Source: a virus | Taxonomy: Duplodnaviria > Heunggongvirae > Uroviricota > Caudoviricetes > Demerecviridae | Reading direction: 5' to 3' (one strand) | IMG/VR virus record: IMGVR_UViG_2706796127_000001 | Location: 64,001 to 111,325 of that record | Length of the DNA stretch: 47,325 bases | Shown: positions 5,557 through 28,621 of the stretch, piece after piece | Position numbering within the stretch: the stretch's first letter is position 1 | How the letters are laid out: the number at the start of each line of letters is the position of its first letter | Made by a program: the position numbers and the translations under genes | The notes under the pieces: model-generated | The model's database searches: none | What the model saw: only the letters and a program-made list of their open reading frames with translations | What the model was told of the DNA's origin: nothing

Positions 5557-6324
5557 TTAGGTTCCTTGATTAACCTTGATTTTATATCTAGAGTGAATCA
5601 GGTCTCTTGCAGCTTTTGCTATAGCCTCACCAATAAGTTTTTGGGGGTTTCTAGCACCAGGATAAGGTCGTAGAGATAGTCTCCTGTAGGTAGATACTGC
5701 CGGATTGAACACAGAATATGGACGAGTCATATAATTGTATGTTACGTTTAATTCAGGAGAGCCTTTACTAGTTTCAGCATCTCTTAGCATTACATCCTTA
5801 ACTTTAAGAGAGTTAGCAAAGCGTCCTGTTCTAAATTTCAAAGGAGCCCCTGCTTTCTTCATATCTTTAATTAAGTATTCTTTAGCAACTATCTCTAATA
5901 TAACCTTCATATTGCTATTAGACACGAAACGTCCGGAAGCACCTATTATTGCACCTGAGTATCCATCCTCTACGTCTCTAGGATCCCCAAAGTTTACCTG
6001 TACTCTGCCTGTAGAACGTTTTTTACCTACTGAGGATTTTTTACCAGCAGTTGCTTGTATTAGGTTTTCTAGGGCACCTAAATCTCCCGAAAGATCTAAA
6101 CTAGAGGATATAGCTTTTAGTATAGAGGCTGCTCTAACATCAAGAAGATCTTGTGATACGGGTTTTGAAAACTTAAAGGATACTTGAGCAACAGTACCAT
6201 CTCTGGTAGGATCTTTTAACCCTGTTTCAACAGAGTATACAACAGTATTCTTATTATTTTCAGATCGTCCTGCAGTATCTAGCTGCTCTTTAATAATTTG
6301 TTTAGCTAGATCGGAAAGAGACAT
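5557..6324 (-). CDS. Tail completion/neck protein (T5 p143-like)
   Basis: 255 aa; T5 synteny. Confidence 0.75.
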   Translation of the reverse strand: MSLSDLAKQIIKEQLDTAGRSENNKNTVVYSVETGLKDPTRDGTVAQVSFKFSKPVSQDLLDVRAASILKAISSSLDLSGDLGALENLIQATAGKKSSVGKKRSTGRVQVNFGDPRDVEDGYSGAIIGASGRFVSNSNMKVILEIVAKEYLIKDMKKAGAPLKFRTGRFANSLKVKDVMLRDAETSKGSPELNVTYNYMTRPYSVFNPAVSTYRRLSLRPYPGARNPQKLIGEAIAKAARDLIHSRYKIKVNQGT

Positions 6325-6836
6325 TATACTCTCCTATATACTTCAATAATAGTACGAATATGCTCTGGAATACCAGATTTAGTATTATTGAAGGTTACTG
6401 TTTCACCACCAATTGTTTTAGCTTGGCGGTAATCTTGTTTATGCCAATGATCTACTAGCATACATGCTGCTAGCTTAAGATCTTCGGGCATCGGATTGAA
6501 TCCACCTTGTGTATATGTTACATCCATATAACCTTCTGGAGGATTAAATTTGAGAAGGATAATACCGTCAGAGTATAGCTTATACTGCTCTGGGTCAATC
6601 TCATTATCGTTAATCGTCACTTTAGTTACGGAGGTAGCAGATGGTGAGCTCAGAAAATATTTCCTACGTGTAGGTTTTGTATTGATTAGCTGGTCTACCG
6701 CATCAGCATCATCCATGCCTAGAAGGCTTGTAATCAGTGCATTGGCAGCAGTAATCATCATTTCTACACCAGATTCTAATTCAGGTCGTTTTAAACCACC
6801 ATATAATCTATAATCTTCAGCTGTGATGATTTGCAT
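6324..6836 (-). CDS. Head completion / head-tail adaptor (T5 p144-like)
   Basis: 170 aa; ...YTQGGFNPMPEDLKLAACMLVDHW resembles head-tail connector families; TAATG coupling to the next gene. Confidence 0.8.
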   Translation of the reverse strand: MQIITAEDYRLYGGLKRPELESGVEMMITAANALITSLLGMDDADAVDQLINTKPTRRKYFLSSPSATSVTKVTINDNEIDPEQYKLYSDGIILLKFNPPEGYMDVTYTQGGFNPMPEDLKLAACMLVDHWHKQDYRQAKTIGGETVTFNNTKSGIPEHIRTIIEVYRRV

Positions 6837-6849
6837 TTATTTTTCCAAT

Positions 6850-6874
6850 AAAAAAGAGAGCCGAAGCTCTCTTT
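6850..6874 (-). terminator. Intrinsic terminator with UUCG tetraloop
   Basis: Minus strand reads GAGAGC-TTCG-GCTCTC-TTTTTT. Confidence 0.85.
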
Positions 6875-6888
6875 CGGCTAAAGAGCCG

Positions 6889-7461
6889 TTAACAAGAAAA
6901 CATATAGTCATAAACTATTTGTTTTATTTCTGGTAGGTATTTCTCCAGACATGTTTCTGTATACCCATCGGGGAGTAAGGCGGGGGTAAGAAATCCTGAA
7001 GGGATGGCCTTTTTCACTAAACTTTCTAATATAAATGCCTCTTTCCTGGAGTATAGTTGCACAGATAAGATTAGTTCATGGGAATAGAGGGAATGTCGGG
7101 ATTGTTCTTTAATTCTAGTGTCAACAGTCCGAGAGGTAATCCCATACTTTAGAACTGAATAATAGTTATTAGACAACTTTTGAACGTAGAAAATAGTGGG
7201 GTTATCCTCTTCGAGTGCTACTTTATCGTCCCTCATATGTAAAAACCGCGTTTGACAACACTTAGGACATCTAGACCCAGTATTCACAAAATTACGTATA
7301 CTAGGTGTCCAACGATTACCATCTTTGGTACACTCTAGTAATACTTTAGACTCCGAGTTTTTAAACTCACCAACTACCCCCCTGTACACATACCCCTCTT
7401 TTTTGCAAATATCTAGAATTTGTTTTTCTCTTATTTCATAGGGTATTGCTTTTCCAGCCAT
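6889..7461 (-). CDS. Putative homing endonuclease: Zn-ribbon N-terminus plus GIY-YIG-like (T5orf172-type) domain
   Basis: C-x-W...GSRCPKC zinc module, then FYVQKL...KYGITSRTVDTRIKEQ; free-standing between the capsid and head-completion genes. Confidence 0.7.
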   Translation of the reverse strand: MAGKAIPYEIREKQILDICKKEGYVYRGVVGEFKNSESKVLLECTKDGNRWTPSIRNFVNTGSRCPKCCQTRFLHMRDDKVALEEDNPTIFYVQKLSNNYYSVLKYGITSRTVDTRIKEQSRHSLYSHELILSVQLYSRKEAFILESLVKKAIPSGFLTPALLPDGYTETCLEKYLPEIKQIVYDYMFSC

Positions 7462-7480
7462 TCGGTAATCTCCATATAAG

Positions 7481-7518
7481 TATATAGTACAGATATAGTA
7501 CTATATCTGTACTATATA
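7481..7518. repeat. Perfect 38-bp palindrome
   Basis: TATATAGTACAGATATAGT|ACTATATCTGTACTATATA; an adjacent 10-bp hairpin at 7516-7539. Confidence 0.95.
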
Positions 7519-7550
7519 TCCCCTCATTAGAGGGGATATGGGAACTACTA

Positions 7551-8927
7551 TTAAGATGCAGCGTAAGCACCGGATACAACGCCATTTGCAAAGTAACGTT
7601 GCAGGTTAACACGCTGAGTAACGTAGTACGCATCACGCTGTTTACCAGCTTGGCGCTCACGTTCAACAGTAACAGCACGCTGACGCGGCATTACGAAGTT
7701 ATCTTTATAAACAATAACTGCGAACTCTTTATCTGCTGCTTTAGCTGGGAAGTACTCAGAAACTACAACCGGCAGACCATAAATACGACCAACCTGACCC
7801 TGCAGTTTAACAGCATCGTTACCAACCTGTGCAACATCCTGCCATTCTTCATCTTCCAGCAGATCGTAATAAGCATCCATAGATACGATCAGTACCAGTT
7901 TGCTCAGCTTCAGACCATGACGGCCCAGTTTACGACGCAGTTTAGAAATAGTTTTAGCAGTTACCAGAACAGTACCATCAGCTTTAGCTTCGGTGGTAAC
8001 TTTGGCACTATCTTCACTAGCCAGAGTCAACAGACCTTTTGGCTTACCAGAACCATCACCAGTCATAAAGGCTTCTTCAATAGAAACAGCGTGTGCTTCA
8101 ATCAGACGCTTACGAAGCAGTGGCAGCAAGGAGAAGATTGCATCTTCTTCAGTTTCATCAGTAATGAAGGATTTAGCCGCCAGTTTATAGGTCTTGAACT
8201 GAATTTCAGTCAGAGCACCTTTAACTTCGTTACCAGTAGTAGTGTCAGTACCATATGCACTAGCATCTACCCAAGTAGCTTTACCAGCTTCTGGTTCAAC
8301 TAGCATAGTAAGAATCTTACTAGACATCGGCAATTCTTCGAACAGTGCACCAACTACCAGCTCTTTCTGCAGATCACGAATGATACGCTGGGAGAAAATA
8401 GTTTCATAGTTTTCACTGGAAACCTGAACTGAAGAAGAGGTGTTTACAGCTTTAAGGTGATTCTGACCATGTTCAGTTTCGAATACGCCTTTTTCCATTA
8501 CATAGGATAGCAGAACCAGTTTTTCAACTTCATCTTCAAAAGCTTCCTGAGTACCATATAGTGCTTTAGCTACGCTATCACCAACGAAGGAACGACCTTC
8601 ACGAGCTGCTAGCAGAGATTTAATTTCATCCTGAAGACCAACAATAGTTTCCTGCTGTTTTTCTACAGTCTGTGCAAACAGTTCTGCGCTCTTTTTAGCT
8701 TTTTCATCCAGGGACTTAACCAGTTCCAGAGCTTGTTCCAGTTTCTGACGATCTTCGCCAATTGCTTTAGAAACCAGGTCATTCATACGAGCCAGTTCTT
8801 TTTCTTCCTGCTCTTTACGCATACGTTCAGCTTCAGCAGCTTTCTGAGCAGCGGTCAGACCTTCCAGAGATTTAGCCAGATCACCCAGACCAAGTTCTTC
8901 TTTCAGCTTATTAATATCAATAGTCAT
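7551..8927 (-). CDS. pb8: Major capsid protein precursor (HK97 fold) with N-terminal coiled-coil scaffold domain
   Basis: 458 aa; MTIDINKLKEELGLGDLAKSLEG heptad-rich N-terminus; HK97-like body (FMTGDGSGKPKGLL). Confidence 0.95.
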   Translation of the reverse strand: MTIDINKLKEELGLGDLAKSLEGLTAAQKAAEAERMRKEQEEKELARMNDLVSKAIGEDRQKLEQALELVKSLDEKAKKSAELFAQTVEKQQETIVGLQDEIKSLLAAREGRSFVGDSVAKALYGTQEAFEDEVEKLVLLSYVMEKGVFETEHGQNHLKAVNTSSSVQVSSENYETIFSQRIIRDLQKELVVGALFEELPMSSKILTMLVEPEAGKATWVDASAYGTDTTTGNEVKGALTEIQFKTYKLAAKSFITDETEEDAIFSLLPLLRKRLIEAHAVSIEEAFMTGDGSGKPKGLLTLASEDSAKVTTEAKADGTVLVTAKTISKLRRKLGRHGLKLSKLVLIVSMDAYYDLLEDEEWQDVAQVGNDAVKLQGQVGRIYGLPVVVSEYFPAKAADKEFAVIVYKDNFVMPRQRAVTVERERQAGKQRDAYYVTQRVNLQRYFANGVVSGAYAAS

Positions 8928-8944
8928 TTTTAAATAATTCTCCG

Positions 8945-9577
8945 TTATTCTTTAACGTAGCCTAAAGCTATCGCAAGTTTTTCTATTTCAGAAAGATTAC
9001 GTTCTTGAGCTGGGACAGCTTTAGAACTTATTGCAGTAAAAGATTTACGCCATTCAGTATAATCATGACCATTCATGCTCTTAGCGAGATTGAATGTCGA
9101 GTCCTGATTACAAGGTACAGAAACTACCGAAACTTCGTATAGTTCTAAATCTTTAATAATAAATATATCAGTAGCTTCATCCCATTCTGCGTCTAGGCAG
9201 CGGAATCCGATACTAAAAGTTTTCAGTACACCGTTTTTAATTAGTGAAAAGATAGCCGGATCAGAACTTTCATAGATCTCGCATTCGATTTCGAGACCCA
9301 TTTCAGTAGGGTTAAGATCAATACACTTGCCGATTGGACGACGATGATCGTGTCCGAAAAGAATAATCGGGTTTTTCATATAGTTAGTAAGTGCATTAGA
9401 TGTTTTCCACGCAGAAGCAGGAATTACATCACCAGCGCGATCTTTACTAATTGTATTAGCGAATCCACGGATTTTTACAACGCCCTCTTTGGATTCGCTA
9501 TCAATAGATTTAATATAAGCATCTAAATGAACGGGTGCTGATTTTAACTTGTTATAGTCAATAGCAGCTTGTGTCAT
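8945..9577 (-). CDS. pb11: Prohead maturation protease
   Basis: 210 aa; HK97-type protease motifs ILFGHDH..PIG, FSIGF, LYEVSVVSVPCN. Confidence 0.93.
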   Translation of the reverse strand: MTQAAIDYNKLKSAPVHLDAYIKSIDSESKEGVVKIRGFANTISKDRAGDVIPASAWKTSNALTNYMKNPIILFGHDHRRPIGKCIDLNPTEMGLEIECEIYESSDPAIFSLIKNGVLKTFSIGFRCLDAEWDEATDIFIIKDLELYEVSVVSVPCNQDSTFNLAKSMNGHDYTEWRKSFTAISSKAVPAQERNLSEIEKLAIALGYVKE

Positions 9578-9580
9578 TTA

Positions 9581-10075
9581 TTAGCCTCCAGGAACAGTAG
9601 GATTAACTGTCACAGCACATGCAGTAGAATCCTTACTTACTTGCTTACTATCTGTTACAGTTACTTTATAAGAGCCGGCATCCTCAGCTGCTGCTGTAGG
9701 TTTAGTATAGATAGCTCCTGAAGCATCCGGAATAGGAGAACCATCCTTAGTCCATGCATAAGTATATGGACCAGTACCGCCGGTTGCAGTAACAGAAAGG
9801 GTTAACGCTGCTCCCTCTTCAACGGACATGCTAGCAGTTAAATCTTTAGAAAGAGTTAAGGGCGGAGCAGGCTGAGCAGGAGGAACTGCTTTACCATAAG
9901 CCTCTACAAATTTCTTCCATACTTTACGGTTAGTATGCGCAGATGAAAGTCCTAGTTCTCTACGCAGAAAAGCATAGCTAGGAACATATTTATGCGCAGC
10001 AACCGTAGCAAAGAAGATATGAGATTCTGGCAGTTTTTCACCAAAAATGGTCTTTAGACCATTATAATCAATCAT
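9581..10075 (-). CDS. pb10: Capsid decoration protein with C-terminal Ig-like domain
   Basis: 164 aa; Ig segment LTLSVTATGGTGPYTYAWTKDG...DAGSYKVTVTD. Confidence 0.9.
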   Translation of the reverse strand: MIDYNGLKTIFGEKLPESHIFFATVAAHKYVPSYAFLRRELGLSSAHTNRKVWKKFVEAYGKAVPPAQPAPPLTLSKDLTASMSVEEGAALTLSVTATGGTGPYTYAWTKDGSPIPDASGAIYTKPTAAAEDAGSYKVTVTDSKQVSKDSTACAVTVNPTVPGG

Positions 10076-11289
10076 TCTTTATCTCCCTCGGTGGAACCTT
10101 GAGGTCTACCACCTTCTTGACCCGATACACCTGTTGCAGAACCAGCAACGTTAGCAGGAATACGAATCTTATTCATCTGCTCATCATCTAAAGGTTCAAG
10201 GTTCAGCTCTAAACGAGCTTCGTTACCAGTCATAATACCATTATTAACCAATGAGGTTAAATGTTTAGCCTCAGATTCTTTATCTGGTGTTAATGCAGCT
10301 ACTTCCTTAGTATTAGGAGTAATCTTATAACCAAAAAAGAAAGTAAGAGAACTAGTCAGCTTATTCAGCATAGGGATGATAGTCATGTAATAGAACAGTT
10401 CGATATTTGGTCGAATGTTTGCATTATTACCACCATCAAGTAGCACTTGCGGAACACCAAAGGCTAGACAGATGGACTTATTAAATCCTTCAATGTCTTC
10501 CTTAAAGTCTAGATCTTTAAAAGAGGATATTTGGGAGTACGGTTTAGCTTTCATACCACCATCTAGAATCAGGACAGAGGACTGACCAGTACTAGGATTA
10601 TAATCTAGTTGTAATTCTTCTTGTTTACGCTCACGCAATTTCTTGTTCAGGATTTCATCCGTCTCAAGAATAAGACCAATCACGGTTCCGTTATCGAGGA
10701 ACTTCTCTTTAAAGTTAAGCATCTTAGAACGCTTCTCAAGAGAATCAATAACAGTAGCAACACGAGATTGTCCAGAAATTTGAGAATTTGTGCCACACAC
10801 GTAACTGTTATCCTTTATAAAGATAATCTCATCTACGCGATAGTCTATCTGGTTATTAAATATAAATTTTTTGATAAACTTATTGGCATCTGCCTCTACT
10901 TGCATTAATGCAGCAGGGACATGATAAAGTGCTGTGCCATCCCAATAGATGTATGCACAACCTTCAAAAAGTAGGTCAGTGACTACAAGTCTACGGAATG
11001 TGCTTATATCCATGAATGGATTAGGTCGTACATTTAAGAGAGTGTCTAGAGTCTTTGCCTTGATGCCATTAGCATACGTGACAATATTATATTTATCTCC
11101 GACAGTATAAGAACACTCCGCCGCACTATCTATAACCATATTAGCAGTTCTATTGAGAATCTCAATTTTACTGTAGGCTTGTCCAGTGGTAAAAGGCTTA
11201 CGGTTAGTGCGATGACTAACTGGTTCCATGTCTCTTATAATACGTTGACCCGGATTTAGCTTTTCAGTAATCCAGCTTTTAAAACCCAT
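10072..11289 (-). CDS. pb7: Portal protein
   Basis: 405 aa HK97-family portal (ICLAFGVPQVLL, MTGNEARLELNLEP). Confidence 0.93.
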   Translation of the reverse strand: MGFKSWITEKLNPGQRIIRDMEPVSHRTNRKPFTTGQAYSKIEILNRTANMVIDSAAECSYTVGDKYNIVTYANGIKAKTLDTLLNVRPNPFMDISTFRRLVVTDLLFEGCAYIYWDGTALYHVPAALMQVEADANKFIKKFIFNNQIDYRVDEIIFIKDNSYVCGTNSQISGQSRVATVIDSLEKRSKMLNFKEKFLDNGTVIGLILETDEILNKKLRERKQEELQLDYNPSTGQSSVLILDGGMKAKPYSQISSFKDLDFKEDIEGFNKSICLAFGVPQVLLDGGNNANIRPNIELFYYMTIIPMLNKLTSSLTFFFGYKITPNTKEVAALTPDKESEAKHLTSLVNNGIMTGNEARLELNLEPLDDEQMNKIRIPANVAGSATGVSGQEGGRPQGSTEGDKE

Positions 11290-11726
11290 TATAAGAACCT
11301 TGCGAATCCTGATTTTGTTTCAGTCTTGACTTGTGTCTTTTCTTGAGGATTCTGTAATTTGTCTTTCTGCTTTTGAACCCACACTTTTTGCTTATTAGCA
11401 GAAAATAAAGGAGGTTCTTTTGTGTAAACCTTATGTAATAATTGGTGATGGTGCTGACATAATGTTACCACGTCTCTAACTAGTTCATGCTCATATTTCT
11501 TATAGAATGCTTCCCTATTTGAAAGGACGATATTCTCATCAGTGAAATCCAACTGGAGTTCTTTGGCAAATTTTTTAACTAGTTGAGATATAGTATGGTA
11601 ATGATGAAGTTCTAGGTCTTCATTACTACCGCATACAGCACAGCAACCATCCTTACTATACCTAGATTTTATACCATCTCTCATTATGGAAATGGCATCA
11701 CGTTTGTACTTAGTATTAGTGGCCAT
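11289..11726 (-). CDS. Conserved packaging-associated HNH-type nicking endonuclease
   Basis: CAVC...LELHH...TLCQHHH motifs between terminase and portal; start moved to ATG 11726 behind a GGAGG Shine-Dalgarno (145 aa). Confidence 0.8.
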   Translation of the reverse strand: MATNTKYKRDAISIMRDGIKSRYSKDGCCAVCGSNEDLELHHYHTISQLVKKFAKELQLDFTDENIVLSNREAFYKKYEHELVRDVVTLCQHHHQLLHKVYTKEPPLFSANKQKVWVQKQKDKLQNPQEKTQVKTETKSGFARFL

Positions 11727-12390
11727 ATTCCTCCAATCCAAAGTTACTTAGAAAGACTACTATATCCTCTGGAGCAACATCAAAAAACTCTGTGCTTCCT
11801 GTAAACTTTGAAAATCCACAGTTTTTATTATAGTACTCTCTATGGACTTCTTTTTCCAAATCTAGAGCAGTTTCCCTATCAGGTAAATGATATGTGGTAA
11901 ACAAGTATAAATCTGAAAATCCAGACTCTCTTTTAACCTCGTTCAACCGCTTCTCAGGGTATAAACTTATACCTACCTTAGTACCCATAGAGGAGGACAT
12001 GATATAGAGAAATCCACCATTATCCCATTTAAGGGAGCAATAAGGACATCTTCTACCTTGCGTTAGCCCATCTAAGGTAATGTAGCATTCATGACCATTG
12101 TTACAGCGTAGATGTAGTTTTGTTTTTGCATTAATATAGTTATTTAACAGTGTATACCCTATACTGGATACCCTGTTATTAACTTCATCTAGCGATATAG
12201 TATTAGGAGCGCAATGTGGGCAACCTCTTCCTGTATGAAGTATAGAATGTGGCGTTGCTTCCCAAACGTGTGCTCTTTGGCACTTAAATACTGTTTTTGT
12301 ACGTTGGTTTACATATTCACCGACAATTTGGATTCCACGATCAGCTAATCTAGTATTTATATCTTTTATTGTTAGCTTTTGTCGACCCAT
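11716..12390 (-). CDS. Putative homing endonuclease: two Zn-ribbon repeats plus GIY-YIG-like (T5orf172-type) domain
   Basis: Repeats FKCQRAHVW...GRGCPHC and LRCNNGHE...GRRCPYC, then FLYIM...KVGISLYPEKRLNEV; start moved to ATG 12390 (GGGAG SD). Confidence 0.75.
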   Translation of the reverse strand: MGRQKLTIKDINTRLADRGIQIVGEYVNQRTKTVFKCQRAHVWEATPHSILHTGRGCPHCAPNTISLDEVNNRVSSIGYTLLNNYINAKTKLHLRCNNGHECYITLDGLTQGRRCPYCSLKWDNGGFLYIMSSSMGTKVGISLYPEKRLNEVKRESGFSDLYLFTTYHLPDRETALDLEKEVHREYYNKNCGFSKFTGSTEFFDVAPEDIVVFLSNFGLEEYGH

Positions 12391-16919: not shown

Positions 16920-17143
16920 TGTTTAGTATTATAATTGCTTTTATTATCGGGATACTCGCGGGAGTTTTCGGGACGACTGCGGCAATCAATAAGCATCGGG
17001 AATATATCGCGGGAGTGACGCGGGAGATTGCGGAAAGGGAGCGGAAGTTTGACGAGAAACGTGCGGAGTTTGAGCGGGAGTGGTCGGATGGATCTCGGGC
17101 GTCGCGGAAGAGATTTCGGGCTAAGGTGAGTGATGAAGAATAA
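16919..17143 (+). CDS. Membrane-anchored charged/coiled-coil protein, 74 aa
   Basis: N-terminal hydrophobic helix followed by an E/R-rich tail. Confidence 0.75.
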   Translation: MFSIIIAFIIGILAGVFGTTAAINKHREYIAGVTREIAERERKFDEKRAEFEREWSDGSRASRKRFRAKVSDEE

Positions 17144-17669: not shown

Positions 17670-17790
17670 TTAGCGCTAAAATGACTTTTGCCAAATTCTT
17701 TGGATTACGTACGCGTGGGTGAGTCCAGTGGCTGGGGCGAAAATACTTAGTCTGCTAACCGCCACCCCCGTGACTATTAGCAAGCTAACT

Positions 17791-17844: not shown

Positions 17845-18579
17845 TTACGCAACTTTTAATTTCTCAATATATTGTTGCGGGCTGCAACTATATTCTGCGC
17901 GTTCTTCTTCTGTCATACTCTCCCAACATAATTGCAAGCGATCGGCCAGGAACTGATAATCATTATCATCGTCGAGCGATTCATCAATAAAGGTTTCACC
18001 TATCAATGTGACGCCGATTGATAGAATATCATTAATAGCTTGCGCGTCCAACGTTTTAAATCCGTATGACGCTGCCGCTGCTAGCACGCCTTTGTGATCG
18101 TCAATCATCGTAAAATCAGCGTTCGGATATAATTGCTTGAATAATTCAAAGTAATAGCTTTTATAAACTGCGTCTTTGCTGTGGTATATTTCGCTAACCT
18201 TATCAGCCTCAAAATATTTATGCAGTGTATCACGGGAAAACACGCGGATATTACTATCCCCACGCCCTCGCAGTCCTTGTTTGCGTAGGTAATAATAATC
18301 TGATTTGCTCATTAGTCGAGCGGTGCAAATAATGTTTAAAGTATTTGCGTCATTCATGCACTGGCGCATATATTCCACCAAAGGCAATAAGGTATCTTGC
18401 ATTATTAAATGATGTTTGCAAGCCTCATTTTTGTACTTATTTAAATCTAAATTCCCGTCGCTATCAAAGCAAGGCGCTACACGATGGAACGAATTAACGA
18501 TAGTGCCATCAAGATCCCAAATCATGACGCGGGAAATATGCGGGAAATTACGGGTAATATTCGTTTTAACTTGATTCAT
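17845..18579 (-). CDS. dmp: 5'-deoxyribonucleotidase (HAD family)
   Basis: HAD motif WDLDGTI and IDD; start moved to MNQVKTN at 18579 (244 aa, GGAG SD). Confidence 0.92.
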   Translation of the reverse strand: MNQVKTNITRNFPHISRVMIWDLDGTIVNSFHRVAPCFDSDGNLDLNKYKNEACKHHLIMQDTLLPLVEYMRQCMNDANTLNIICTARLMSKSDYYYLRKQGLRGRGDSNIRVFSRDTLHKYFEADKVSEIYHSKDAVYKSYYFELFKQLYPNADFTMIDDHKGVLAAAASYGFKTLDAQAINDILSIGVTLIGETFIDESLDDDNDYQFLADRLQLCWESMTEEERAEYSCSPQQYIEKLKVA

Positions 18580-19119: not shown

Positions 19120-20784
19120 TTATGCGAAAAATTTGCCGTTTTTAAAGTCAATCAAAGTGCGCTGGCCGTTTGCATAGGTAATTAAATGCGTTTGCGTCCA
19201 GCTTGACGCGCCAACGTTGTATCCCATATCCAGACTACCAGCGACGCCAGCGGTATAAACGCCGCCGTAAATGCTGGCGGTGTGGGTGTGCCCCGTGTTT
19301 AACTTGCCCAATTTCTTGAATTGCTTCGGATTGCCACGGCTGCCGTTAATGCCGTTGTGACCGTGTACACCGCACTCAATGCCTGCAATTTTAAATGATT
19401 GGTCAGTGGTCAGAAAAATCGCGTTAAACTCGCAACCTGCAACCGTACGCAGCGCATAATCTAGCACGTTGAAAGTATCATCCTGCCTTGCAATAGCTGC
19501 ATAGATAGCAGCATTAAGGCGGTGATACAGTTCGGCGTTGGCTGGATCGTCCTTAATGTTAGCATTACGATCATCAAGCCAACGAGAGAGCGCCAAATCG
19601 TGATTCGATTCGACAATGATCGTTTGACTAAAATCGCGCTCCATTGATTCTAGTACGCGCCCCGTATCGATCAAATCATCCATAACCTTATCACGTCCGG
19701 CTGCATACTGTTTCGCTAGGAATACACCAGACGCGCGGTTGTGGTGGTTGCGTGATGTAAAATCATGCACGTCATGCACAAACTGATATTTAGGCTTGAG
19801 AATATCAAGCAAGCTGTTTTCGCCAGCCCATGACGCTGCGGCGCACTCATCATCTAATTTTTCAGCGTGCACGTCGCCATATTGCAAGCCTAAAACATGC
19901 CCCGACGTTTCAAAACATCCGGCGGGGGTGGCGCAAATATTCAAATCGTAAAACATGCCGCTTTCGTCCATTGTTTCAAGCTGGCGCACAAAAAACTCAC
20001 CGTCTTCGTCGAACTCGACAATAAGCGCGCCGTAATTATGCAATGCTTCCGCTTTTTGCCCTGCTTTCTGCTGGATGTAGTTTTTAAGCGTTGCCGTTCC
20101 GGTTGAGTACATGCGGCGTACTACTTCACCTTTGAGAGCTGGCACGTTTTCGGCGGTAATTTTAGCGTGACCAATTGCCAGACCTTCAATATTTAGAGCC
20201 GTTGCAGTTTCTGCAAATCCAGATAGCGGATAATCTGCGGTGGGCAAAACATTAATTTCAGCCATGAAAGCGAAACGGCGGTTATTTAAAAACACGTTTT
20301 TGCTGCAAATATATTTATCAAACGCGGAATCATATTTGATTCCGTCTGCGCCTTCACCATTTTGAAAGCCGTTTTTATTATAAACATACTTAGAAACAAG
20401 CAAATCAGCGCCGCAAAATTTAGCATATTGTTCAAGTGAGGCTAAAAAGTTTTTATGCGGGAAAGTATTATTCTGAATCGATGTAATAATAAAGCGTTTA
20501 CCCTGTTTTACTTCCCACTGTTCCACCGTGCTGGAAATAATTCCAGCCGCCTCGGGGCGCTCGTCGTTTTTAATGGCTTTTGCTACTTTTGCCGTTTTCG
20601 GTTTCGCTGGTTTATTTGCTTCTAACCAATCACAAATCGCGGTAGAGTGTTTTGCAGTATCATAAACCGCTTTAGAAATATCGTCGCAGACTTCCAGCCG
20701 GGTGGCGCGTAGACGTTTACCGTAGAAATTAAAGTCAGCGGCCAGCTTCAGGATAACGGTTTGTTTTTCTGCGGAAATAATCAT
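19120..20784 (-). CDS. A1: A1 protein (host DNA degradation / second-step transfer); metallophosphoesterase-like C-terminal half
   Basis: Start moved to MIISAEKQ (554 aa); motifs GDVH, HDVHD, ESNHD, HGH, GHTH. Confidence 0.92.
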   Translation of the reverse strand: MIISAEKQTVILKLAADFNFYGKRLRATRLEVCDDISKAVYDTAKHSTAICDWLEANKPAKPKTAKVAKAIKNDERPEAAGIISSTVEQWEVKQGKRFIITSIQNNTFPHKNFLASLEQYAKFCGADLLVSKYVYNKNGFQNGEGADGIKYDSAFDKYICSKNVFLNNRRFAFMAEINVLPTADYPLSGFAETATALNIEGLAIGHAKITAENVPALKGEVVRRMYSTGTATLKNYIQQKAGQKAEALHNYGALIVEFDEDGEFFVRQLETMDESGMFYDLNICATPAGCFETSGHVLGLQYGDVHAEKLDDECAAASWAGENSLLDILKPKYQFVHDVHDFTSRNHHNRASGVFLAKQYAAGRDKVMDDLIDTGRVLESMERDFSQTIIVESNHDLALSRWLDDRNANIKDDPANAELYHRLNAAIYAAIARQDDTFNVLDYALRTVAGCEFNAIFLTTDQSFKIAGIECGVHGHNGINGSRGNPKQFKKLGKLNTGHTHTASIYGGVYTAGVAGSLDMGYNVGASSWTQTHLITYANGQRTLIDFKNGKFFA

Positions 20785-20880
20785 AGTAATAAACTCCATT
20801 AAAGGGATAAAAAACGTTTGTTATTGGCAAATGTTGCCAAATATAACGCCTCCAATAATAGGCGTTATAATTTGCAATAT

Positions 20881-21135: not shown

Positions 21136-21543
21136 TTATTCACCTGCGGCCTGTTTTACTTCATCGGCAACGCCTAACAACTGCGCCACGGCGTCCAGCG
21201 TTTCCAGTTTCGCGCTTTCAAGGCTTGCCAGATCATCGGCGTCCTTGATAATGCCGGAATCGATGGCATGTTTTGCAATTACTCGCACATAATGAGCTTT
21301 ACGGATTGAACTGCCGCCGCCAACTTTGCGCGGCTTGTCGCTTTTCTGATAGGCTTTCGCGCTGGTCAGTTTTGATCGAACGGATACGGGGGAGGCCGCG
21401 CCTACTGCCTTTGCAATCTCTTTCAGGCCGTCGCTATTTGCAAAATCTAAACCGTTTTCGCTGATTAGTTGCTGATACATGGTAACAGCTTTTTGGGTGT
21501 TTTCTTCATTCCATGAGAATTTTGCGGTTTTTGCGTTAGTCAT
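21136..21543 (-). CDS. A2: A2 DNA-binding protein (second-step transfer)
   Basis: 135 aa MTNAKTAKFSWNEENTQKAV..., recognised as T5 A2. Confidence 0.9.
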   Translation of the reverse strand: MTNAKTAKFSWNEENTQKAVTMYQQLISENGLDFANSDGLKEIAKAVGAASPVSVRSKLTSAKAYQKSDKPRKVGGGSSIRKAHYVRVIAKHAIDSGIIKDADDLASLESAKLETLDAVAQLLGVADEVKQAAGE

Positions 21544-22839: not shown

Positions 22840-23358
22840 TTAATTGACAATTCCAAATTCAGCTTTTTTAATTTCAAGCCATAATAATAACTCTTGTAAA
22901 TCATAACCTGACTTACTAACACGTTTGTTAGTAATAGGATTCTTAATCTGAGCAGTCAAATAGTCACGCCCGTAAGTATCACGGGGGCGAATTTTATTAA
23001 CGTAAATGTTTCTAGGGATACCATTAGCACGCTTACAGTTTTCATACTCACTAGGAGTACGATTATAGTTATTCTGGGAACTATCAACCGCGCGAAGATT
23101 CCAAATGTTATTATTACGGGGGTTACGATCAATATGATCAATCATTAGCTCGCTATCTATACCGCCATTCATTATACAAAAAATAATTCTATGTACTTTG
23201 AATTGTCCTTTATCTAATAATTCAACTTGCCAATAATTACCATTTAAACCACCTGCGATGGCGTGATCTTCTCGCCACCGTAAAAACGATAACGATGTTT
23301 CATCATAATAAAAGTAACTATTAAAAAGGTCATAATCTATATCTTTATATTTAGGCAT
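22840..23358 (-). CDS. HNH homing endonuclease in the pre-early region
   Basis: KVHRIIF...IDHIDRNPRNNNIWNLR; preceded by an extended -10 (TGATATAAT, 23398-23406). Confidence 0.88.
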   Translation of the reverse strand: MPKYKDIDYDLFNSYFYYDETSLSFLRWREDHAIAGGLNGNYWQVELLDKGQFKVHRIIFCIMNGGIDSELMIDHIDRNPRNNNIWNLRAVDSSQNNYNRTPSEYENCKRANGIPRNIYVNKIRPRDTYGRDYLTAQIKNPITNKRVSKSGYDLQELLLWLEIKKAEFGIVN

Positions 23359-23541
23359 CTAATTGTTTCCTTATGTTATTAATTTAATCTCTATTATATT
23401 ATATCAAAATGATTAGCAGACTAGCTAATGAGTTTTTCAGGTTTAATTAGCCGACTCATAATCACTCTAAAAACCTATTAGCCAACTAACTATATTTTAC
23501 GATATAATAACTACATAAATTAGTTAGTGAGAACTACTATC

Positions 23542-23656
23542 ATTTAAGTTATCCACAAAGTTATCCCCAGCACTTTTTGACTTGACACAATAGGCGGCGA
23601 TATGAGGGCTTTTACACAGACTTATCCACAGGTTATCCTACTGTATAAATATACAG
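23542..23656 (+). promoter_or_regulatory. Module of 4 DnaA-box-like sites plus a LexA (SOS) box, left copy
   Basis: TTATCCACA at 23549 and 23622, variants at 23561 and 23633; CTGTATAAATATACAG at 23641-23656. Confidence 0.8.
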
Positions 23657-23931
23657 GGTAAAAAGGCAGTGTTAACAACTGCAATCAATTTTAGGCCGCC
23701 TAAAACGCTTTCTAACGAGCTAAACGCTGCGGGGCAATATTAAAGTAAAGACCCAACACGGCGGCCAGGTGGATTCAGTGCGGCGGCCTGGTGGCTTCGC
23801 CGTGTTTTGTCCCGCAGCGGTTATCATAAAAATAGGCGTTAGGCAAGGAAAATAAAAAAGTAAAATAATCTTTGCCTATGCTAGAAAATTACCCTTATCA
23901 TTCACTCACCGATTAACGAGGGGGCCAACAA

Positions 23932-24918
23932 ATGCGGCTATATAAACCAGATAACGCAACCGTCTTAAAAGGTGCGCTGCGTAACCTGCTGGATGGTAGC
24001 AGAACAACCAGCATTAAGCATTTTGTTTTCAATATTGAAACTATTCATCAAAACTTTTTTGATGATTATGATGCTTATAATATGAATAGTTTTCTACCGT
24101 TATATAAGCAAGGGGCAACGCTTGTTTTGTATAATCAGGATTATCAATTGCTCACTAGTCGGGGGCCGGATACTGATTTCATAATCGTAAAAGGCAACAC
24201 AGTAAAAGCCTATGATACTGGGGCGGGCTTAGAAGTTTTTTCAATAGAAAACTATGAGGCCAATGATAATGATCTTTATGACGTAGAAAATTTTCTCGAT
24301 TCATTTTGGCGTTATTTATCAGTTGGCTGGAATCGGTCGGATTCTGATGGGTATCGTTTTGCGGCTATAATGGCCTTTGATGATAACGGTAATTTTTTGC
24401 TACCGTCGGAGTTATATAATCGGGTATATGAAGGCGATATTGTTGACGCCGGATTTTCTTTCGAAAGGGAAGAAAGTATTGGCAATATAGAAAAACATGC
24501 TGTAAATTCTAACACTAAAAACGTTCACGCTCAAACTACTGAAAACAAAGGAAAAAACACCATGACCAAGATCGCCAATATCGTTGCCGCCAATAAATCC
24601 GCTGCTGTAAATGCTGCAAAACTGGAAGCGGGTAAAATTGCACTGACTCAAATTACGAAAGTAGCGGCTAAAAAAGCGCCCTTCATGATTAAAGGCTATA
24701 TTGATACGCCGATTGGTCGCGTAGTGATCGCTAACCTGCTGAGTGTAGCGGTTGACCAGTACGCCCCAAGTAACCAGAAAGCGAAAGCGGTAGCAAGCGC
24801 GGCTATGGAAGCGGCAATGTTAGAAATGGTGCAAAGTTTTAACATCGCTGAGATGATCGATGAAATGGTAAAAGGTATCGATATTTCTACTTTTACCGTT
24901 AACAACGAAAGCGAGTAA
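23932..24918 (+). CDS. Pre-early hypothetical protein with possible internal start
   Basis: 328 aa; Ala-rich C-terminal third starts at in-frame ATG 24562. Confidence 0.8.
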   Translation: MRLYKPDNATVLKGALRNLLDGSRTTSIKHFVFNIETIHQNFFDDYDAYNMNSFLPLYKQGATLVLYNQDYQLLTSRGPDTDFIIVKGNTVKAYDTGAGLEVFSIENYEANDNDLYDVENFLDSFWRYLSVGWNRSDSDGYRFAAIMAFDDNGNFLLPSELYNRVYEGDIVDAGFSFEREESIGNIEKHAVNSNTKNVHAQTTENKGKNTMTKIANIVAANKSAAVNAAKLEAGKIALTQITKVAAKKAPFMIKGYIDTPIGRVVIANLLSVAVDQYAPSNQKAKAVASAAMEAAMLEMVQSFNIAEMIDEMVKGIDISTFTVNNESE

Positions 24919-24944
24919 TAGCTAACCTAATGTAAAGTTTTGTA

Positions 24945-24972
24945 AAGGTCGCCTTTTATGGCGGCCTTTTTT
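24945..24972 (+). terminator. Intrinsic terminator overlapping an extended -10 promoter
   Basis: AAGGTCGCC/GGCGGCCTT stem plus T run, then TGTTATAAT. Confidence 0.7.
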
Positions 24973-25036
24973 GTTATAATGCCTTTACACCGTTTGAGGA
25001 CGGTTGAAAATTTTCCCAAAAATTTGGAGGCTTAAA

Positions 25037-25267
25037 ATGGTTGCTTTTTCTTCTTCTGACGCTCTTTTCACTGGTAAAGGCTGGGTATCAAATCGCTGGA
25101 TTATTCAAGAAATGGTGCAAGAATACGGCATTGCTAAAACTTATAACACCATACAGGCGCTTTATGATAATGATCAAATCGATCAGCAAACGGCGGGCTT
25201 TTTATTGGATACCCTGAAGGCGGAACACTGTACCAAAAAACAAGCGGCAAAAATTATTTTAATGTAA
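25037..25267 (+). CDS. Pre-early hypothetical protein
   Basis: Start moved to MVAFSS behind GGAGG (76 aa). Confidence 0.75.
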   Translation: MVAFSSSDALFTGKGWVSNRWIIQEMVQEYGIAKTYNTIQALYDNDQIDQQTAGFLLDTLKAEHCTKKQAAKIILM

Positions 25268-25316
25268 TTAATAACGGGGCGTTAGTTTCGCCCCACTAAC
25301 TAGGGGAGTATTACAA

Positions 25317-25466
25317 ATGATTATTTTTCGAGCTATTCTGGCGGGTATCTTGGGCGCTATTTTATCTTTGTTTGCAATAGCTTTCGACGTTCACGCGGTT
25401 ATTATTGGCGCGGGTATCGCTGTATTTTCTTATCTGCTGGGCTGCATGACTAGTAAAGGAGAATAA
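25317..25466 (+). CDS. Small two-helix membrane protein, 49 aa
   Basis: MIIFRAILAGILGAILSLFAIAFDVHAVIIGAGIAVFSYLLGCMTSKGE; GGGGAG SD; below the ORF-track cutoff. Confidence 0.75.
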   Translation: MIIFRAILAGILGAILSLFAIAFDVHAVIIGAGIAVFSYLLGCMTSKGE

Positions 25467-25469
25467 AAA

Positions 25470-25682
25470 ATGATCCGCAACGTTTCTCTTGCACGTTCGA
25501 AAGGCTTTAAGCTGGTGGATGCTAACACGTTCGAGCGTCCAGATTGTAAAATCGAATATGTAGCACGTAATAAAAATGCCTTTCGTGTTACTGAAAAGAA
25601 ATTCGATAAGCGCGGCAACGTGATCACTGAAACGGTTAAATACTTTGCCACCTTTTACGCGGCCTTTCGTGGGGTGTTATAA
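25470..25682 (+). CDS. Pre-early hypothetical protein
   Basis: 70 aa, AAGGAG SD. Confidence 0.8.
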   Translation: MIRNVSLARSKGFKLVDANTFERPDCKIEYVARNKNAFRVTEKKFDKRGNVITETVKYFATFYAAFRGVL

Positions 25683-25683
25683 A

Positions 25684-26028
25684 ATGGTTATTTATGAGGG
25701 CAACCGTTTTGTTGCTAACTGCCTCCCGGCATTATTAGCAAACTATTTAAATCAGCTTTCGCCAACATATAAGGGCGTTATTAATATTTATGAGGGCAAG
25801 GCGCATTATAAAATCAATGCGGTCGTTGCCCGTGAACTAGCGTTTCAATTTTTAACCTTTGCATCTTGCGACGTTCAGGTTATGGGTGAGGCATTAATCG
25901 CAGAAAATGCAGACGATTTTATTAATATTTTCCGCAAGGTGTGCACCGAGCGCCTGATAATGAAAGGCGCATATATTCAATCCACGGCTGATAGTATTGA
26001 AACAGCGTTTCGAAAGGTGGCGCAATGA
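25684..26028 (+). CDS. Pre-early hypothetical protein
   Basis: Start moved to MVIYEGNRF (114 aa). Confidence 0.75.
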   Translation: MVIYEGNRFVANCLPALLANYLNQLSPTYKGVINIYEGKAHYKINAVVARELAFQFLTFASCDVQVMGEALIAENADDFINIFRKVCTERLIMKGAYIQSTADSIETAFRKVAQ

Positions 26029-26288
26029 TTAATCACGGTAATGGTATTTTTACAGTTAGGGGATTGACTGAAGCGCATGATGCAATGTCTGTACGCGCTA
26101 GGGAATTGGGGGCGCAAAACATACCACTAGAAAAGATCCTGGTTGCTATTCGTGGTTGGGCGTATGCTTTGAAAAAATCCCATAAGTCAATTTATATTAA
26201 CAATACTGCGCACATTACATTTTTAGCGGAGGGTGCTGGGCAATTAGAAAACACCGCTATAATTATCACTGATAGCGTGTATGAATAA
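26025..26288 (+). CDS. Hypothetical protein bracketed by 13-bp direct repeats
   Basis: 87 aa; AAGGTGGCGCAAT at 26014-26026 and 26287-26299. Confidence 0.7.
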   Translation: MINHGNGIFTVRGLTEAHDAMSVRARELGAQNIPLEKILVAIRGWAYALKKSHKSIYINNTAHITFLAEGAGQLENTAIIITDSVYE

Positions 26289-26349
26289 GGTGGCGCAATA
26301 AGGTTATATAGTAACGGGGCGCAACTATCCGGAAGTGCCCCCAATTTTC

Positions 26350-26370
26350 AAATGAGAATGATTCTCATTT
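26350..26370. promoter_or_regulatory. Perfect palindromic Fur-box-like site
   Basis: AAATGAGAAT-G-ATTCTCATTT. Confidence 0.7.
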
Positions 26371-26566
26371 GACCGCGCCCGCGATGGTTAGCCCGCTAAT
26401 GGTTAGGGTGTTACGTGTCGCCTTGTGTGATCGTTAGCGGGCTAACTAATTTTCAAGCCTCCTCCAATTTTGCCCTTGTTTTAGTACCCCCAACAAAATT
26501 AAACGCGTTAGAATGCGTTTGAGAGCGTTTTAACGGTATATTAGAATTATTCACTGCGTAGGAATA

Positions 26567-26681
26567 CTGTATATTTATACAGTAGGATAAGCTGTGGATA
26601 AGTCTGTTAATAACGCCTCAAAATGGCTAGAATTTTGTCAAGTCAAATCGTGCTGTTGATAAGTCTGTGGATAACTTAAAT
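26567..26681 (-). promoter_or_regulatory. LexA box plus 4 DnaA-box-like sites, inverted right copy
   Basis: TACTGTATATTTATACAGTA at 26565-26584; TGTGGATAA at 26593 and 26666; TGTTGATAA at 26654. Confidence 0.8.
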
Positions 26682-26699
26682 AACAGTGTTTCTCACTTC

Positions 26700-26985
26700 C
26701 ATTCTTAAATGCGAATCATTATCATTTGCATTCCACTTTCTAAATGAGAATCGTTTCACTTTTTAAATGAGAATCATTCCATTTCCTGAATAATTTTCGT
26801 TTCACTTTCTAAATGATAAGCGTTATCATTTGCATTCCACTTTCTAAATGAGAATCATTCCACTTTCTAAATGAGAAGCATTCCGCTTTTTAAATGAGAG
26901 TGATTCTCATTCCACTTTCTAAATGCGAATTATTATCATTCTCATTCCGCTTTTTGAATGAGAATGATTCTTATTATCATTCGTA
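26700..26985. repeat. Tandem array of ~9 Fur-box-like repeats in the injection-stop region
   Basis: Units AAATG(A/C)GAAT(C/G)ATT(A/C)TCATT joined by TTCCACTTTCT linkers. Confidence 0.85.
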
Positions 26986-26988
26986 TTT

Positions 26989-27012
26989 AGCGCAGGGCAA
27001 TTGCCCTGCGCT
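26989..27012. repeat. Perfect 24-bp palindrome carrying the T5 nick-site motif on both strands
   Basis: AGCGCAGGGCAATTGCCCTGCGCT. Confidence 0.9.
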
Positions 27013-27043
27013 TTTGTGCAAATCCGACATTGCTCCACGGGTG

Positions 27044-27583
27044 TTACGTGCGGGCGTGTATGTGCGAATCCGACCCATTTTTGGTAGTGTGCAAATCCGA
27101 CCCTAAAATTTCATCCCTCCATTTTACTAGGAACTCCAAATCGTAGGAACACTTGGACTTAGTGCCGCTGCTAGTGGGCACATAAGCTCGATAATAGTCC
27201 CCTTTCGATGTAGTACGAGCTACACGGATATATTTTGGTAGATTAATTGTTTTGATATTAGTATCTCTACGATTCCTAGCATTTTTATAATCAGGGATTT
27301 GACGTAAATTTTCTGGACTATTGTTAGTGGGGTCTTGATCTATATGATCTACCTGAAGCTCGGGATCAACACTGCCATTATGCAGGCAGAAAATAATCCG
27401 GGAAACCGCTAGAGTCCCTATCCCATTTACAAAGACCACAAAAGATTTCCTACCTTTCCCGTCGTCCCTTAAAGTGCCTGTATGTTTTCTTTTAGGTAAT
27501 CTACTCAGCCCACTGGGACTTGAGGGGTCAATAAAAAATAAGTCTTTCATTTGTGCGTATTCGATAGGTATATATCTTGACAT
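27044..27583 (-). CDS. HNH homing endonuclease inside the injection-stop repeats
   Basis: AVSRIIF...VDHIDQDPTNNSPENLR; start moved to MSRYIP behind GGAGG (179 aa). Confidence 0.85.
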   Translation of the reverse strand: MSRYIPIEYAQMKDLFFIDPSSPSGLSRLPKRKHTGTLRDDGKGRKSFVVFVNGIGTLAVSRIIFCLHNGSVDPELQVDHIDQDPTNNSPENLRQIPDYKNARNRRDTNIKTINLPKYIRVARTTSKGDYYRAYVPTSSGTKSKCSYDLEFLVKWRDEILGSDLHTTKNGSDSHIHART

Positions 27584-27608
27584 AATAAAATTCCTCCTAT
27601 GAAGTAAT

Positions 27609-27637
27609 ATTATAACAAAATTTTCGAAAGTGTGCAA
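27609..27637 (-). promoter_or_regulatory. Promoter for the HNH gene
   Basis: TTGCAC-17 bp-TATAAT. Confidence 0.7.
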
Positions 27638-28449
27638 GTGAAATTTTTATATTTGAAAATAACCGCCCTCCCCATAACCGCCCTATTCGAATCCTGTGTT
27701 ATTTACTAGAGTATGTGCAAATACGACAGGGGTTTATTAGTGCAAAACCGACAAGATTTTTGTGACTTCGATGAGAGGGTGTGTGATTGTGTGAGTTTGG
27801 AGAGAAGTTGAGAGAGCGAGAGAAAATTAGGGGAACTGCGAGAGGGGCGCATGTTTGGTGCTGGGCACCCGATTTGCGGGGATTTTGGGGAAGAGTTGAG
27901 AAGATTTGGGTTAATTTGAGATTAGAGGAGATAAAGTAAAATTTTATTAGCAAAACGGGGCAAAATAGCTTGACAAGTGAAAATTTCTGTGGCTCTAAAA
28001 ACTCAGGCAATCATGGGCCTTCGGCCCGAAATAATGCTGCTATTTTCAGGAGATTATATGTTCCTAAAAACTTAGGCAATTGTGCAAATCCGACCATAAA
28101 TTTCTAGAAACACAATGTGCAAATCCGACAGTAATTTCTGGAAAAGTGTTTTCAAAAAATGTCTTCTAGAAATAACCGCCCTCCCTATAACCGCCCTGTA
28201 TTAAACCGCCTAGTATATGTTCCTAGAAACTTAGGAGAACCGCCTACTAGAAGTGTGATATCTCGTGAGTATTTCGTGAGAACTCTGGAGTTTCTAGGAA
28301 AGTGTTGTGCCATCCTAGCAGATGAGCGGCAACAGGTGTATCATCTTGAATGTAAATTATATGGTCAAAAGTTTTACTTTTATTTTAAATATAAGATCCC
28401 CCAGGGTTCTCATATAGAGGTTTGCCCCCGCCAGAAGGTCTCGTGATGT

Positions 28450-28586
28450 TTCTAGCAATTTATATTAAATTACTTATTAACTTGTCCTGTCGCTCCGTAT
28501 CCTCCGCTACAAGTTAGTAATTTTAAATTACTGAACCACCACACCTTCTGTGTGGCAACTCTAAATGGTTAATTCTATTAACTCAT
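28450..28586 (-). ncRNA. Candidate structured small RNA with GGA-rich loop
   Basis: No credible ORF; four consecutive hairpins downstream of a consensus promoter. Confidence 0.4.
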
Positions 28587-28592
28587 AGAGTT

Positions 28593-28621
28593 ATGATAAC
28601 ATACATTTAGCTATCTGTCAA
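28593..28621 (-). promoter_or_regulatory. Promoter with no downstream ORF
   Basis: TTGACA-17 bp-TATCAT with extended TG. Confidence 0.7.

Follow-up and report, generated by a model that had tools for sequence, protein, structure and literature searches.

Predicted DnaA, LexA and Fur-type sites cluster in the injection-stop region of a T5-like phage and recur across the Demerecviridae

INTRODUCTION

Why the DNA of bacteriophage T5 stops after 8% of the genome has entered the cell has been unexplained since the 1960s, and DnaA is the sole host candidate in print. The same question is raised by a 5.2-kb stretch (positions 23400-28620) in the 111,325-bp genome of a T5-like phage of the Demerecviridae. 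We analyzed this stretch within a window of 47,325 nucleotides that covers positions 64,001 to 111,325 of the IMG/VR record IMGVR_UViG_2706796127_000001; coordinates refer to this window unless another genome is named. A sequence-only reading had noted near-consensus sites for the host regulators DnaA, LexA, and Fur, a palindromic motif, and a GGA-rich small RNA candidate for CsrA in this DNA, and had taken their clustering for a checkpoint or a decoy platform rather than inert repeats.

The pause is known for T5 and BF23. It requires no phage protein synthesis, and a protein that reads the DNA at this point would therefore be a pre-made host or virion protein. The stop is independent of the receptor; DNA released into FhuA proteoliposomes shows no pause, and the complete genome is injected in vitro. 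Two phage proteins matter here. A1 shuts off host transcription, and about 4 minutes suffice for half of the host DNA to be degraded; A2, a conserved dimer that binds DNA, is needed for second-step transfer. The T5 records annotate many repeats and palindromes in the corresponding DNA, together with an "injection stop signal (iss)" at T5 9140-10149 (Wang 2005 annotation; Davison, bioRxiv 10.1101/866236). The Davison preprint reports, for 25 T5-like phages, eight DnaA boxes that come in pairs; it attributes the first of them to a 1987 paper and proposes that membrane-bound DnaA stops injection. The binding of DnaA to the T5 boxes is likewise a proposal in the literature (bioRxiv 10.1101/866236).

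Here we report that the predicted DnaA, LexA, and Fur-type sites reach operator grade, occur almost exclusively in this region, and are conserved far beyond their surroundings. We see about an even chance that a complex of host proteins on the first-step DNA that emerges last helps to hold injection, which would extend the published DnaA model.

RESULTS

The stretch corresponds to the injection-stop DNA of T5

A megablast search with 23400-28620 matched 532 phage records, nearly all of them T5-like phages of Salmonella, Escherichia, and Klebsiella. The window is collinear with T5 (AY587007), with T5 base 2 aligning at 17723 and T5 12172 at 29998, and the DNA identity to T5 5770-12172 amounts to 82-89%, with conserved synteny. 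The stretch corresponds to T5 about 6020-10860, which runs from Repeat Region 2 through the rightward pre-early genes and Repeat Region 3 into the beginning of the unique DNA. Its place is in the terminal repeat, with the leftward A1/A2 operon on one side and the first early gene (T5.018) on the other. By homology, it is this phage's ortholog of the first-step-transfer control region of T5, that is, of the injection stop DNA.

Two modules, which form a 146-nt inverted repeat with arms that are 78% complementary, bracket the rightward pre-early operon (Table 1). As in T5, the order of elements is IRC-spacer-IRD, the rightward pre-early genes, IRD'-spacer-IRC', the direct repeats C/E with palindromes, palindrome J, and the direct repeats D. 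This phage differs from T5 by an additional HNH gene among the D repeats and by one extra array unit of ~104 bp. The T5 Repeat Regions 2 and 3 were reportedly described by Heusterspreute in 1987 and by Davison in 2015.

DnaA boxes occupy both arms of the inverted repeat

The genome contains only five exact copies of TTATCCACA, and four of them are located inside the two arms. Each of these four has a partner box, with one or two mismatches, at a distance of 3 bp. Several TTATNCACA 9-mers are thus found within about 150 bp, which is the mark of a DnaA box cluster. The arrangement resembles clusters of the oriC and datA type in having several consensus TTATCCACA boxes at short regular spacing. 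Unlike at oriC, there is no evidence of an origin in this region, and the T5 origins have been reported near the genome center (bioRxiv 10.1101/866236). The predicted DnaA boxes are real as sequence matches and have already been published along with the anatomy of the repeats.

Consensus-grade LexA boxes accompany the DnaA boxes

Each module also carries a predicted LexA (SOS) box. These two boxes are the sole sites in the genome within 4 mismatches of the 20-mer consensus, against a mean of 0.07 in shuffled sequences, and both have the CTGT-N8-ACAG dyad with an AT-rich spacer. They depart from the consensus at 1 and 3 positions, whereas by the same count the operators of Escherichia coli lexA (two operators) and uvrA-ssb depart at 5-6. 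Gammaproteobacterial SOS boxes such as these share the CTGT-N8-ACAG palindrome, the AT-rich center, and the TA flanks with the phage sites. The phage sites differ from the E. coli operators in that they are nearer to the consensus, are found in a virulent phage, and show no visible overlap with a mapped promoter. The use of LexA by phages is known from temperate phages such as GIL01, in which it controls lysogeny switches. Both boxes face the rightward operon. T5 itself has four LexA boxes, all within its two terminal repeats, one of which is annotated merely as "palindrome D."

Close relatives are 90-99% identical over all of 26320-26720, so that conservation per column cannot single out the boxes and only distant lineages are informative. 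In these lineages the pairing recurs. (i) A LexA box is located beside DnaA boxes in T5, in Pectobacterium phage My1, in a Klebsiella phage, in a Proteus phage, and in three genera of Vibrio phages, with flanks that cannot be aligned. (ii) The pairing extends to Vibrio phages with an A1 that is ~30% identical, and every Demerecviridae lineage sampled has it. (iii) A scan of IMG/VR for the pattern CTGTAT-N4-ATACAG at 8-22 nt after a DnaA box retrieved 79 stretches, where fewer than 1 was expected, including metagenomic contigs with an A1 that is 27-34% identical. (iv) The DnaA-LexA composite was present in all 8 of 8 further Demerecviridae loci that were chosen by their A1 alone, ignoring the box. 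(v) Across lineages the arms of the LexA box are constant and its central four bases vary, as expected for LexA. Phages in which the A1-like gene is shorter served as negative control, and their 32 loci (about 0.5 Mb) contained no LexA-type or Fur-type site. It follows that the host-site triad accompanies the full-length A1 found in Demerecviridae. In these short-A1 phages (loci L136-L167), the A1 match starts from residue about 78, the contigs measure 5-150 kb, and there are almost no DnaA boxes near A1.

The claim that DnaA, LexA, and Fur-type sites cluster at the boundary of the first and second steps was thus borne out by matches to the consensus and by genome-wide counts. That they are more than inert repeats is supported by the recurrence of the triad in Demerecviridae with unalignable flanks and an A1 that is 27-46% identical.

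On the LexA side of the modules we also observed a recurrent motif resembling CTAAAACGC or TTAGAATGCG, often in two or three copies (23699-23730 and 26500-26535 in this phage), which is present in enteric and marine lineages alike.

LexA boxes at such positions invite an explanation in terms of transcription, in which LexA, Fur, and DnaA are ordinary repressors or roadblocks on phage promoters, so that pre-early expression or a noncoding transcript is gated by SOS, iron, and replication; in one version the sites act as a timer that fires once the breakdown of host DNA triggers LexA cleavage. For instance, rightward transcription of the array could start immediately to the left of LexA box 2, and a leftward promoter could overlap LexA box 1. 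Candidates for both exist: LexA box 2 is preceded, at 20 nt, by TTGAGA-17-TAGAAT (26519-26547), and TTAACA-16-TATATT is found at 23675-23648. A -10-like TAGAAT/TAGAGT recurs at that distance from the box in enteric lineages. The orientation of both boxes toward the rightward operon and the terminator-like palindrome at 26983-27005, which closes the array, would also fit. However, the experimentally mapped pre-early promoters of T5 are located elsewhere, even T5 does not retain the -35 elements, none of the hexamers holds a fixed position across lineages, and promoter-like matches are common in this AT-rich DNA (29, against 16 in shuffled sequences). We therefore consider control of phage promoters rather unlikely.

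Fur-type palindromes form an array next to module 2

The repeat unit to the right of module 2 is a 9-1-9 palindrome, AATGAGAAT-N-ATTCTCATT. Nine sites in the genome are within 2 mismatches of AATGAKAATNATTMTCATT, and eight of these nine fall into 26351-26981. The array, which repeats with periods of 23 and 104 nt over 26700-26980, corresponds to direct repeat C, the DRE repeats, and palindromes E to I of T5, and the shear point of the first-step DNA of T5 (about 9618) maps inside it, just outside the DnaA/LexA module. Within the half-site, positions 1-4 and 7 are invariant, positions 8-9 are mostly AT, and positions 5-6 are AG, CG, or AT.

Several observations point to Fur as the potential reader. 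The 9-1-9 palindrome is the published Fur-box consensus of Xanthomonas, AATGAgAATcATTctCATT (PMC1790865). It agrees with the Shewanella and Bacillus consensus at 17 of 19 positions, and AAATGAGAATCATT occurs among the listed Fur boxes of Acinetobacter. Its invariant bases (the G of TGA, the T's, and the AAT-N-ATT center) are those that Fur contacts or shape-reads in crystal structures, where the G is read by Arg57, the thymines by Tyr56, and the AT-rich center by Lys15 (PMC4506495). The Fur-box form AATGAtAAT-N-ATTaTCATT (9-1-9, with a 7-1-7 core) was found at eight sites with 0-2 mismatches, under a scoring that allows G/T and C/A at the symmetric position. As a yardstick, the E. coli fepA-fes, fepD-entS, and fepB-entC operators match the 9-1-9 consensus with 3-5 mismatches, and the same pattern finds these three Fur-controlled divergent ent-fep promoters (7 of 9 matches in 26 kb of E. 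coli). In distant A1/A2 loci, the palindromes amount to 0.49 per kb within 1 kb of a LexA box and to 0.063 per kb elsewhere, an 8-fold difference, and several copies are located near the DnaA-LexA module in My1, in Klebsiella phages, in Vibrio phage vspsw1, and in distant metagenomic A1/A2 phages. Like long Fur operators, with their 19-bp iron box in 7-1-7 or 9-1-9 form, the array has the same 19-bp palindrome in tandem overlapping copies; unlike them, it has no iron gene downstream, mostly carries G where enterobacterial sites prefer T, and packs ~10 copies into 630 bp.

The number of palindromes varies between strains: compared with the majority of its close relatives, this phage has about one array unit of 104 bp in excess (26790-26890), an indel that lowers the identity to them to 0.05-0.16. 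Helical phasing of the nine palindromes showed a weak preference only (period of about 11.5 bp, R of about 0.6). The classical 19-mer GATAATGATAATCATTATC was discarded as a test, because the repeats score 13-16 of 19 and coding DNA scores 16-18 of 19, so that its count does not discriminate. The best match to it in the window (17949-17973) lies inside the dmp-like gene, close to the left end, and is kept in T5 (228-252) and in a Klebsiella phage (L039, 14853-14877), at up to 18 of 19; it may reflect Asp/Asn codons only or be a further site. A palindrome of the form AATGAGACTTATTCTCATT is found ~3 kb beyond A1 in My1, in Vibrio vspsw1, and in metagenomic phages (L038 16462, L043 16466, L114 8454; L125 12857, L128 13179, L130 13463). 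In My1 it is located within about 40 bp of the left genome end, that is, in the DNA that enters first; T5 and this phage lack it there.

The palindromes, and perhaps other repeats, might instead be sites of phage proteins (of A2 and A1 for the restart of transfer, or of a terminase or nickase for the terminal repeat) or form cruciform or bent DNA, in which case the likeness to Fur boxes would be incidental. A2 would be a candidate, as it is the DNA-binding dimer required for the second step and its model has two helical helix-turn-helix/Myb-like domains with a basic linker. The end of the terminal repeat and the 7.9% nick both adjoin the region, and the arrays differ in some lineages, for example, in the Proteus phage and in Vibrio 70E35-1. 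Moreover, the oriented 13-mer GTGCAAATCCGAC, which is direct repeat D of T5, is conserved as deeply as the host-factor sites and occurs exactly in Vibrio phage Brizo (L044, 11403 and 11692), although it matches no host site that we recognized. On the other hand, the sequence of the palindrome is constant where A2 is only 33-41% identical, which is easier to reconcile with a highly conserved host reader. It also equals a published Fur consensus with the Fur-contact bases kept, the pause requires no phage protein synthesis, and the consensus LexA and DnaA boxes would be left unexplained. The A2 model has no significant structural match, Fur and LexA included. A role of phage proteins or of DNA shape in place of Fur thus appears to us improbable, to much the same degree as the promoter explanation. 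The specific idea that A2 mimics Fur or LexA was rejected: A2 had no match in the copy of Pfam searched and no sequence match in the Protein Data Bank (PDB), and the best Foldseek E value of its AlphaFold model (predicted local distance difference test [pLDDT] score of 87) was not below 0.6.

A further palindromic motif is real and of shallow conservation

The palindromic motif of the sequence-only reading, TTAGYNNRCTAA, occurs in 5 copies where 0.44 are expected, all of them in noncoding first-step DNA; three of these copies are listed in Table 1. In T5 it is present at 26 and 5974. It was not found in distant relatives, so that its conservation is shallow.

The candidate RNA is probably a functional element with little likeness to CsrA-binding RNAs

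At the right end of the stretch, on the minus strand, a predicted near-consensus promoter with an extended TG element is followed by a structured noncoding segment (Table 1). The 148 nt downstream of the promoter fold with -33.9 kcal/mol (z of -3.55). The segment 28430-28640 is 93-100% identical in 8 relatives, in which the adjacent T5.018-like gene is 88-93% identical; being more conserved than the neighboring gene, it is probably a functional RNA or DNA element. The proposal of a GGA-rich small RNA therefore stood in part: promoter and stable fold are present, but the clustering of GGA is at chance level, with 7 clusters of 4 GGA within 30 nt in the genome against 5.1 in shuffled sequences. 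RNAs of the CsrB/RsmY type share with the candidate a promoter followed by a hairpin-rich noncoding stretch that contains GGA; they carry many GGA across repeated hairpins, whereas the candidate has only 4, all in a single predicted loop. A search of Rfam gave no match to a CsrA-binding RNA family and two weak matches below the gathering score, to the Listeria RNA rliI over 26866-27017 and to idnO, which are unrelated and were taken as chance. The part of the earlier proposal that concerned CsrA was accordingly dropped. At 17012-17095 (plus strand), just left of the inferred left genome end, two clusters of four GGA were also seen no more than 30 nt apart.

The decoy proposal held that the cluster titrates four regulators (DnaA, LexA, Fur, and CsrA), removes them from the chromosome and mRNAs of the host, and so derepresses host regulons. 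The three classes of DNA sites are real and clustered, and multicopy plasmids with Fur boxes do titrate Fur, as exploited in the FURTA assay. Yet each entering genome brings only ~2 LexA, ~8 DnaA, and ~10 Fur-type sites, whereas the host pools of these proteins are roughly 10^3-10^4 molecules each. Since the phage degrades the host chromosome within minutes and A1 shuts off transcription, derepressing host regulons would achieve little. For CsrA, the GGA cluster is at chance and confined to one loop, and the candidate RNA, judged by homology to T5, lies beyond the end of the terminal repeat and hence outside the first-step DNA. We regard capture of host regulators as very improbable; the sites may have a checkpoint or architectural role.

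Other features of the region

About 3 kb of the 5.2-kb stretch are coding, namely, the operon and an HNH endonuclease gene, for which Table 1 gives the coordinates. The HNH gene fills a spot where T5 has only ~60 bp (T5 9767-9828), and it has its own promoter-like site and a GGAGG. A second HNH gene, hegG-like (22840-23358), flanks module 1. The open reading frames (ORFs) at 28159-28446 and 27699-28010 matched no PHROG family and were taken as noncoding. The copies of GTGCAAATCCGAC in Table 1 surround the point, about 28000, at which the terminal repeat is expected to end. Two more, of which one lies in a gene, are distant from the repeat region; they are found at 29894 and, 16131 bases ahead of the window, at genome position 47870. 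Palindrome J is annotated in T5 as the site of the 7.9% nick. Because T5 base 2 aligns at 17723, the physical left end of the genome is probably at ~17722, in which case the record would be a permuted assembly with a single copy of the terminal repeat.

Table 1. Coordinates of the features in the window
Feature	Position	Strand	Remarks
A1-like gene	19120-20799	minus	
A2-like gene	21136-21543	minus	
TTAGCCAACTAA, one copy of TTAGYNNRCTAA	23478..23489		
Module 1, left arm of the inverted repeat	23526..23671		T5 IRC-spacer-IRD (Repeat Region 2); maps to T5 6022-6152
DnaA boxes of module 1 (predicted)	23549..23630	+	TTATCCACA at 23549, TTATCCCCA at 23561, TTTTACACA at 23610, TTATCCACA at 23622
LexA (SOS) box 1 (predicted), TACTGTATAAATATACAGGG	23639..23658		17/20 to consensus
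Rightward pre-early operon, T5.011-017-like	23932..26288	+	Flanked by both modules
Ung-dependent nickase family gene	25470-25682		Within the operon
Isolated perfect Fur-type palindrome, AATGAGAATGATTCTCATT	26351..26369		0 mismatches; equals Xanthomonas Fur consensus
Inverted pair TTAGCCCGCTAA / TTAGCGGGCTAA	26388..26445		Two copies of TTAGYNNRCTAA
Module 2, right arm of the inverted repeat	26552..26697		T5 IRD'-spacer-IRC' (Repeat Region 3); start of the injection stop signal annotated in T5
LexA (SOS) box 2 (predicted), TACTGTATATTTATACAGTA	26565..26584		19/20 to consensus; T5 palindrome D (T5 9330-9349)
DnaA boxes of module 2 (predicted)	26593..26674	minus	TTATCCACA at 26593, TTATTAACA at 26605, TTATCAACA at 26654, TTATCCACA at 26666
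Array of ~9 Fur-type 9-1-9 palindromes and half-units	26708..26981		Centers 26717-26966; spacings 23, 29, 35, and 46 bp
GC-rich palindrome followed by a T run	26983..27005		Terminator-like on both strands; T5 palindrome J
Seven copies of the oriented 13-mer GTGCAAATCCGAC	27016..28129	+	T5 direct repeat D
HNH endonuclease gene among the D repeats	27044..27637	minus	phrog_99, E value 3.7e-23
Promoter TTGACA-17-TATCAT with TG (28621-28593), then structured noncoding stretch	28440..28621	minus	

DISCUSSION

Our preferred reading, to which we give about an even chance, is that host proteins contribute to holding the DNA once 8% has entered. In the cell, the predicted sites would be occupied by DnaA, LexA, and Fur of the host, and these abundant and conserved proteins would load onto the last DNA to emerge. 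The resulting bulky complex, partly tethered to the membrane through DnaA, would help to retain the DNA until A1 and A2 resume transfer, and up to that point it may also keep transcription from entering the channel. The use of three different host proteins would provide redundancy across host states. That the sites stay unchanged while their surroundings drift may be due to the binding specificity of DnaA, LexA, and Fur, which is probably nearly invariant across the hosts of this family. A stronger form, in which the host itself imposes the pause, strikes us as doubtful. In this form, DnaA, LexA, and Fur, which every gammaproteobacterial host possesses, would assemble on a conserved composite site in the first-step DNA, at the end that enters last, and would hold the DNA until A1/A2 release it.

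A number of points weigh against the participation of host proteins in holding the DNA. (i) It is unclear how proteins on the cytoplasmic side could stop DNA that is pushed from the capsid, which is a physical difficulty. (ii) No such role falls to the copies in the right terminal repeat. (iii) The viable T5 mutant DLDR (deletion hegG-017), which by gene order has lost module 1, forms only smaller plaques, and some T5-like phages are without module 1 (bioRxiv 10.1101/866236); at least one module is therefore dispensable. (iv) Fur-type palindromes within 2 mismatches are few or absent in lineages with an A1 that is 43-46% identical and in Brizo, and the half-sites are mostly TGAGAAT rather than the enterobacterial TGATAAT. 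(v) A comparison of 36 non-redundant modules revealed no conserved promoter at a constant distance from the LexA box. (vi) The role of LexA and Fur rests entirely on sequence.

The region, its repeats, and its DnaA boxes were already known, and what is new seems to be the identity of the catalogued "palindromes." The Davison preprint of 2020 names neither LexA nor Fur (bioRxiv 10.1101/866236), and no publication linking LexA or Fur boxes with T5 or Demerecviridae was found in the literature searched, which did not extend to Heusterspreute 1987 and Davison 2015.

Consensus-grade LexA boxes and a Fur-type array, in a triad with DnaA boxes that is kept from phages of E. coli to phages of Vibrio, would supply named host proteins for an old puzzle. 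Should the host indeed impose the pause, its length or occurrence would depend on the SOS, iron, and replication state of the cell. Retention of sites for the SOS and iron regulators of its host would, moreover, be unusual in a strictly virulent phage.

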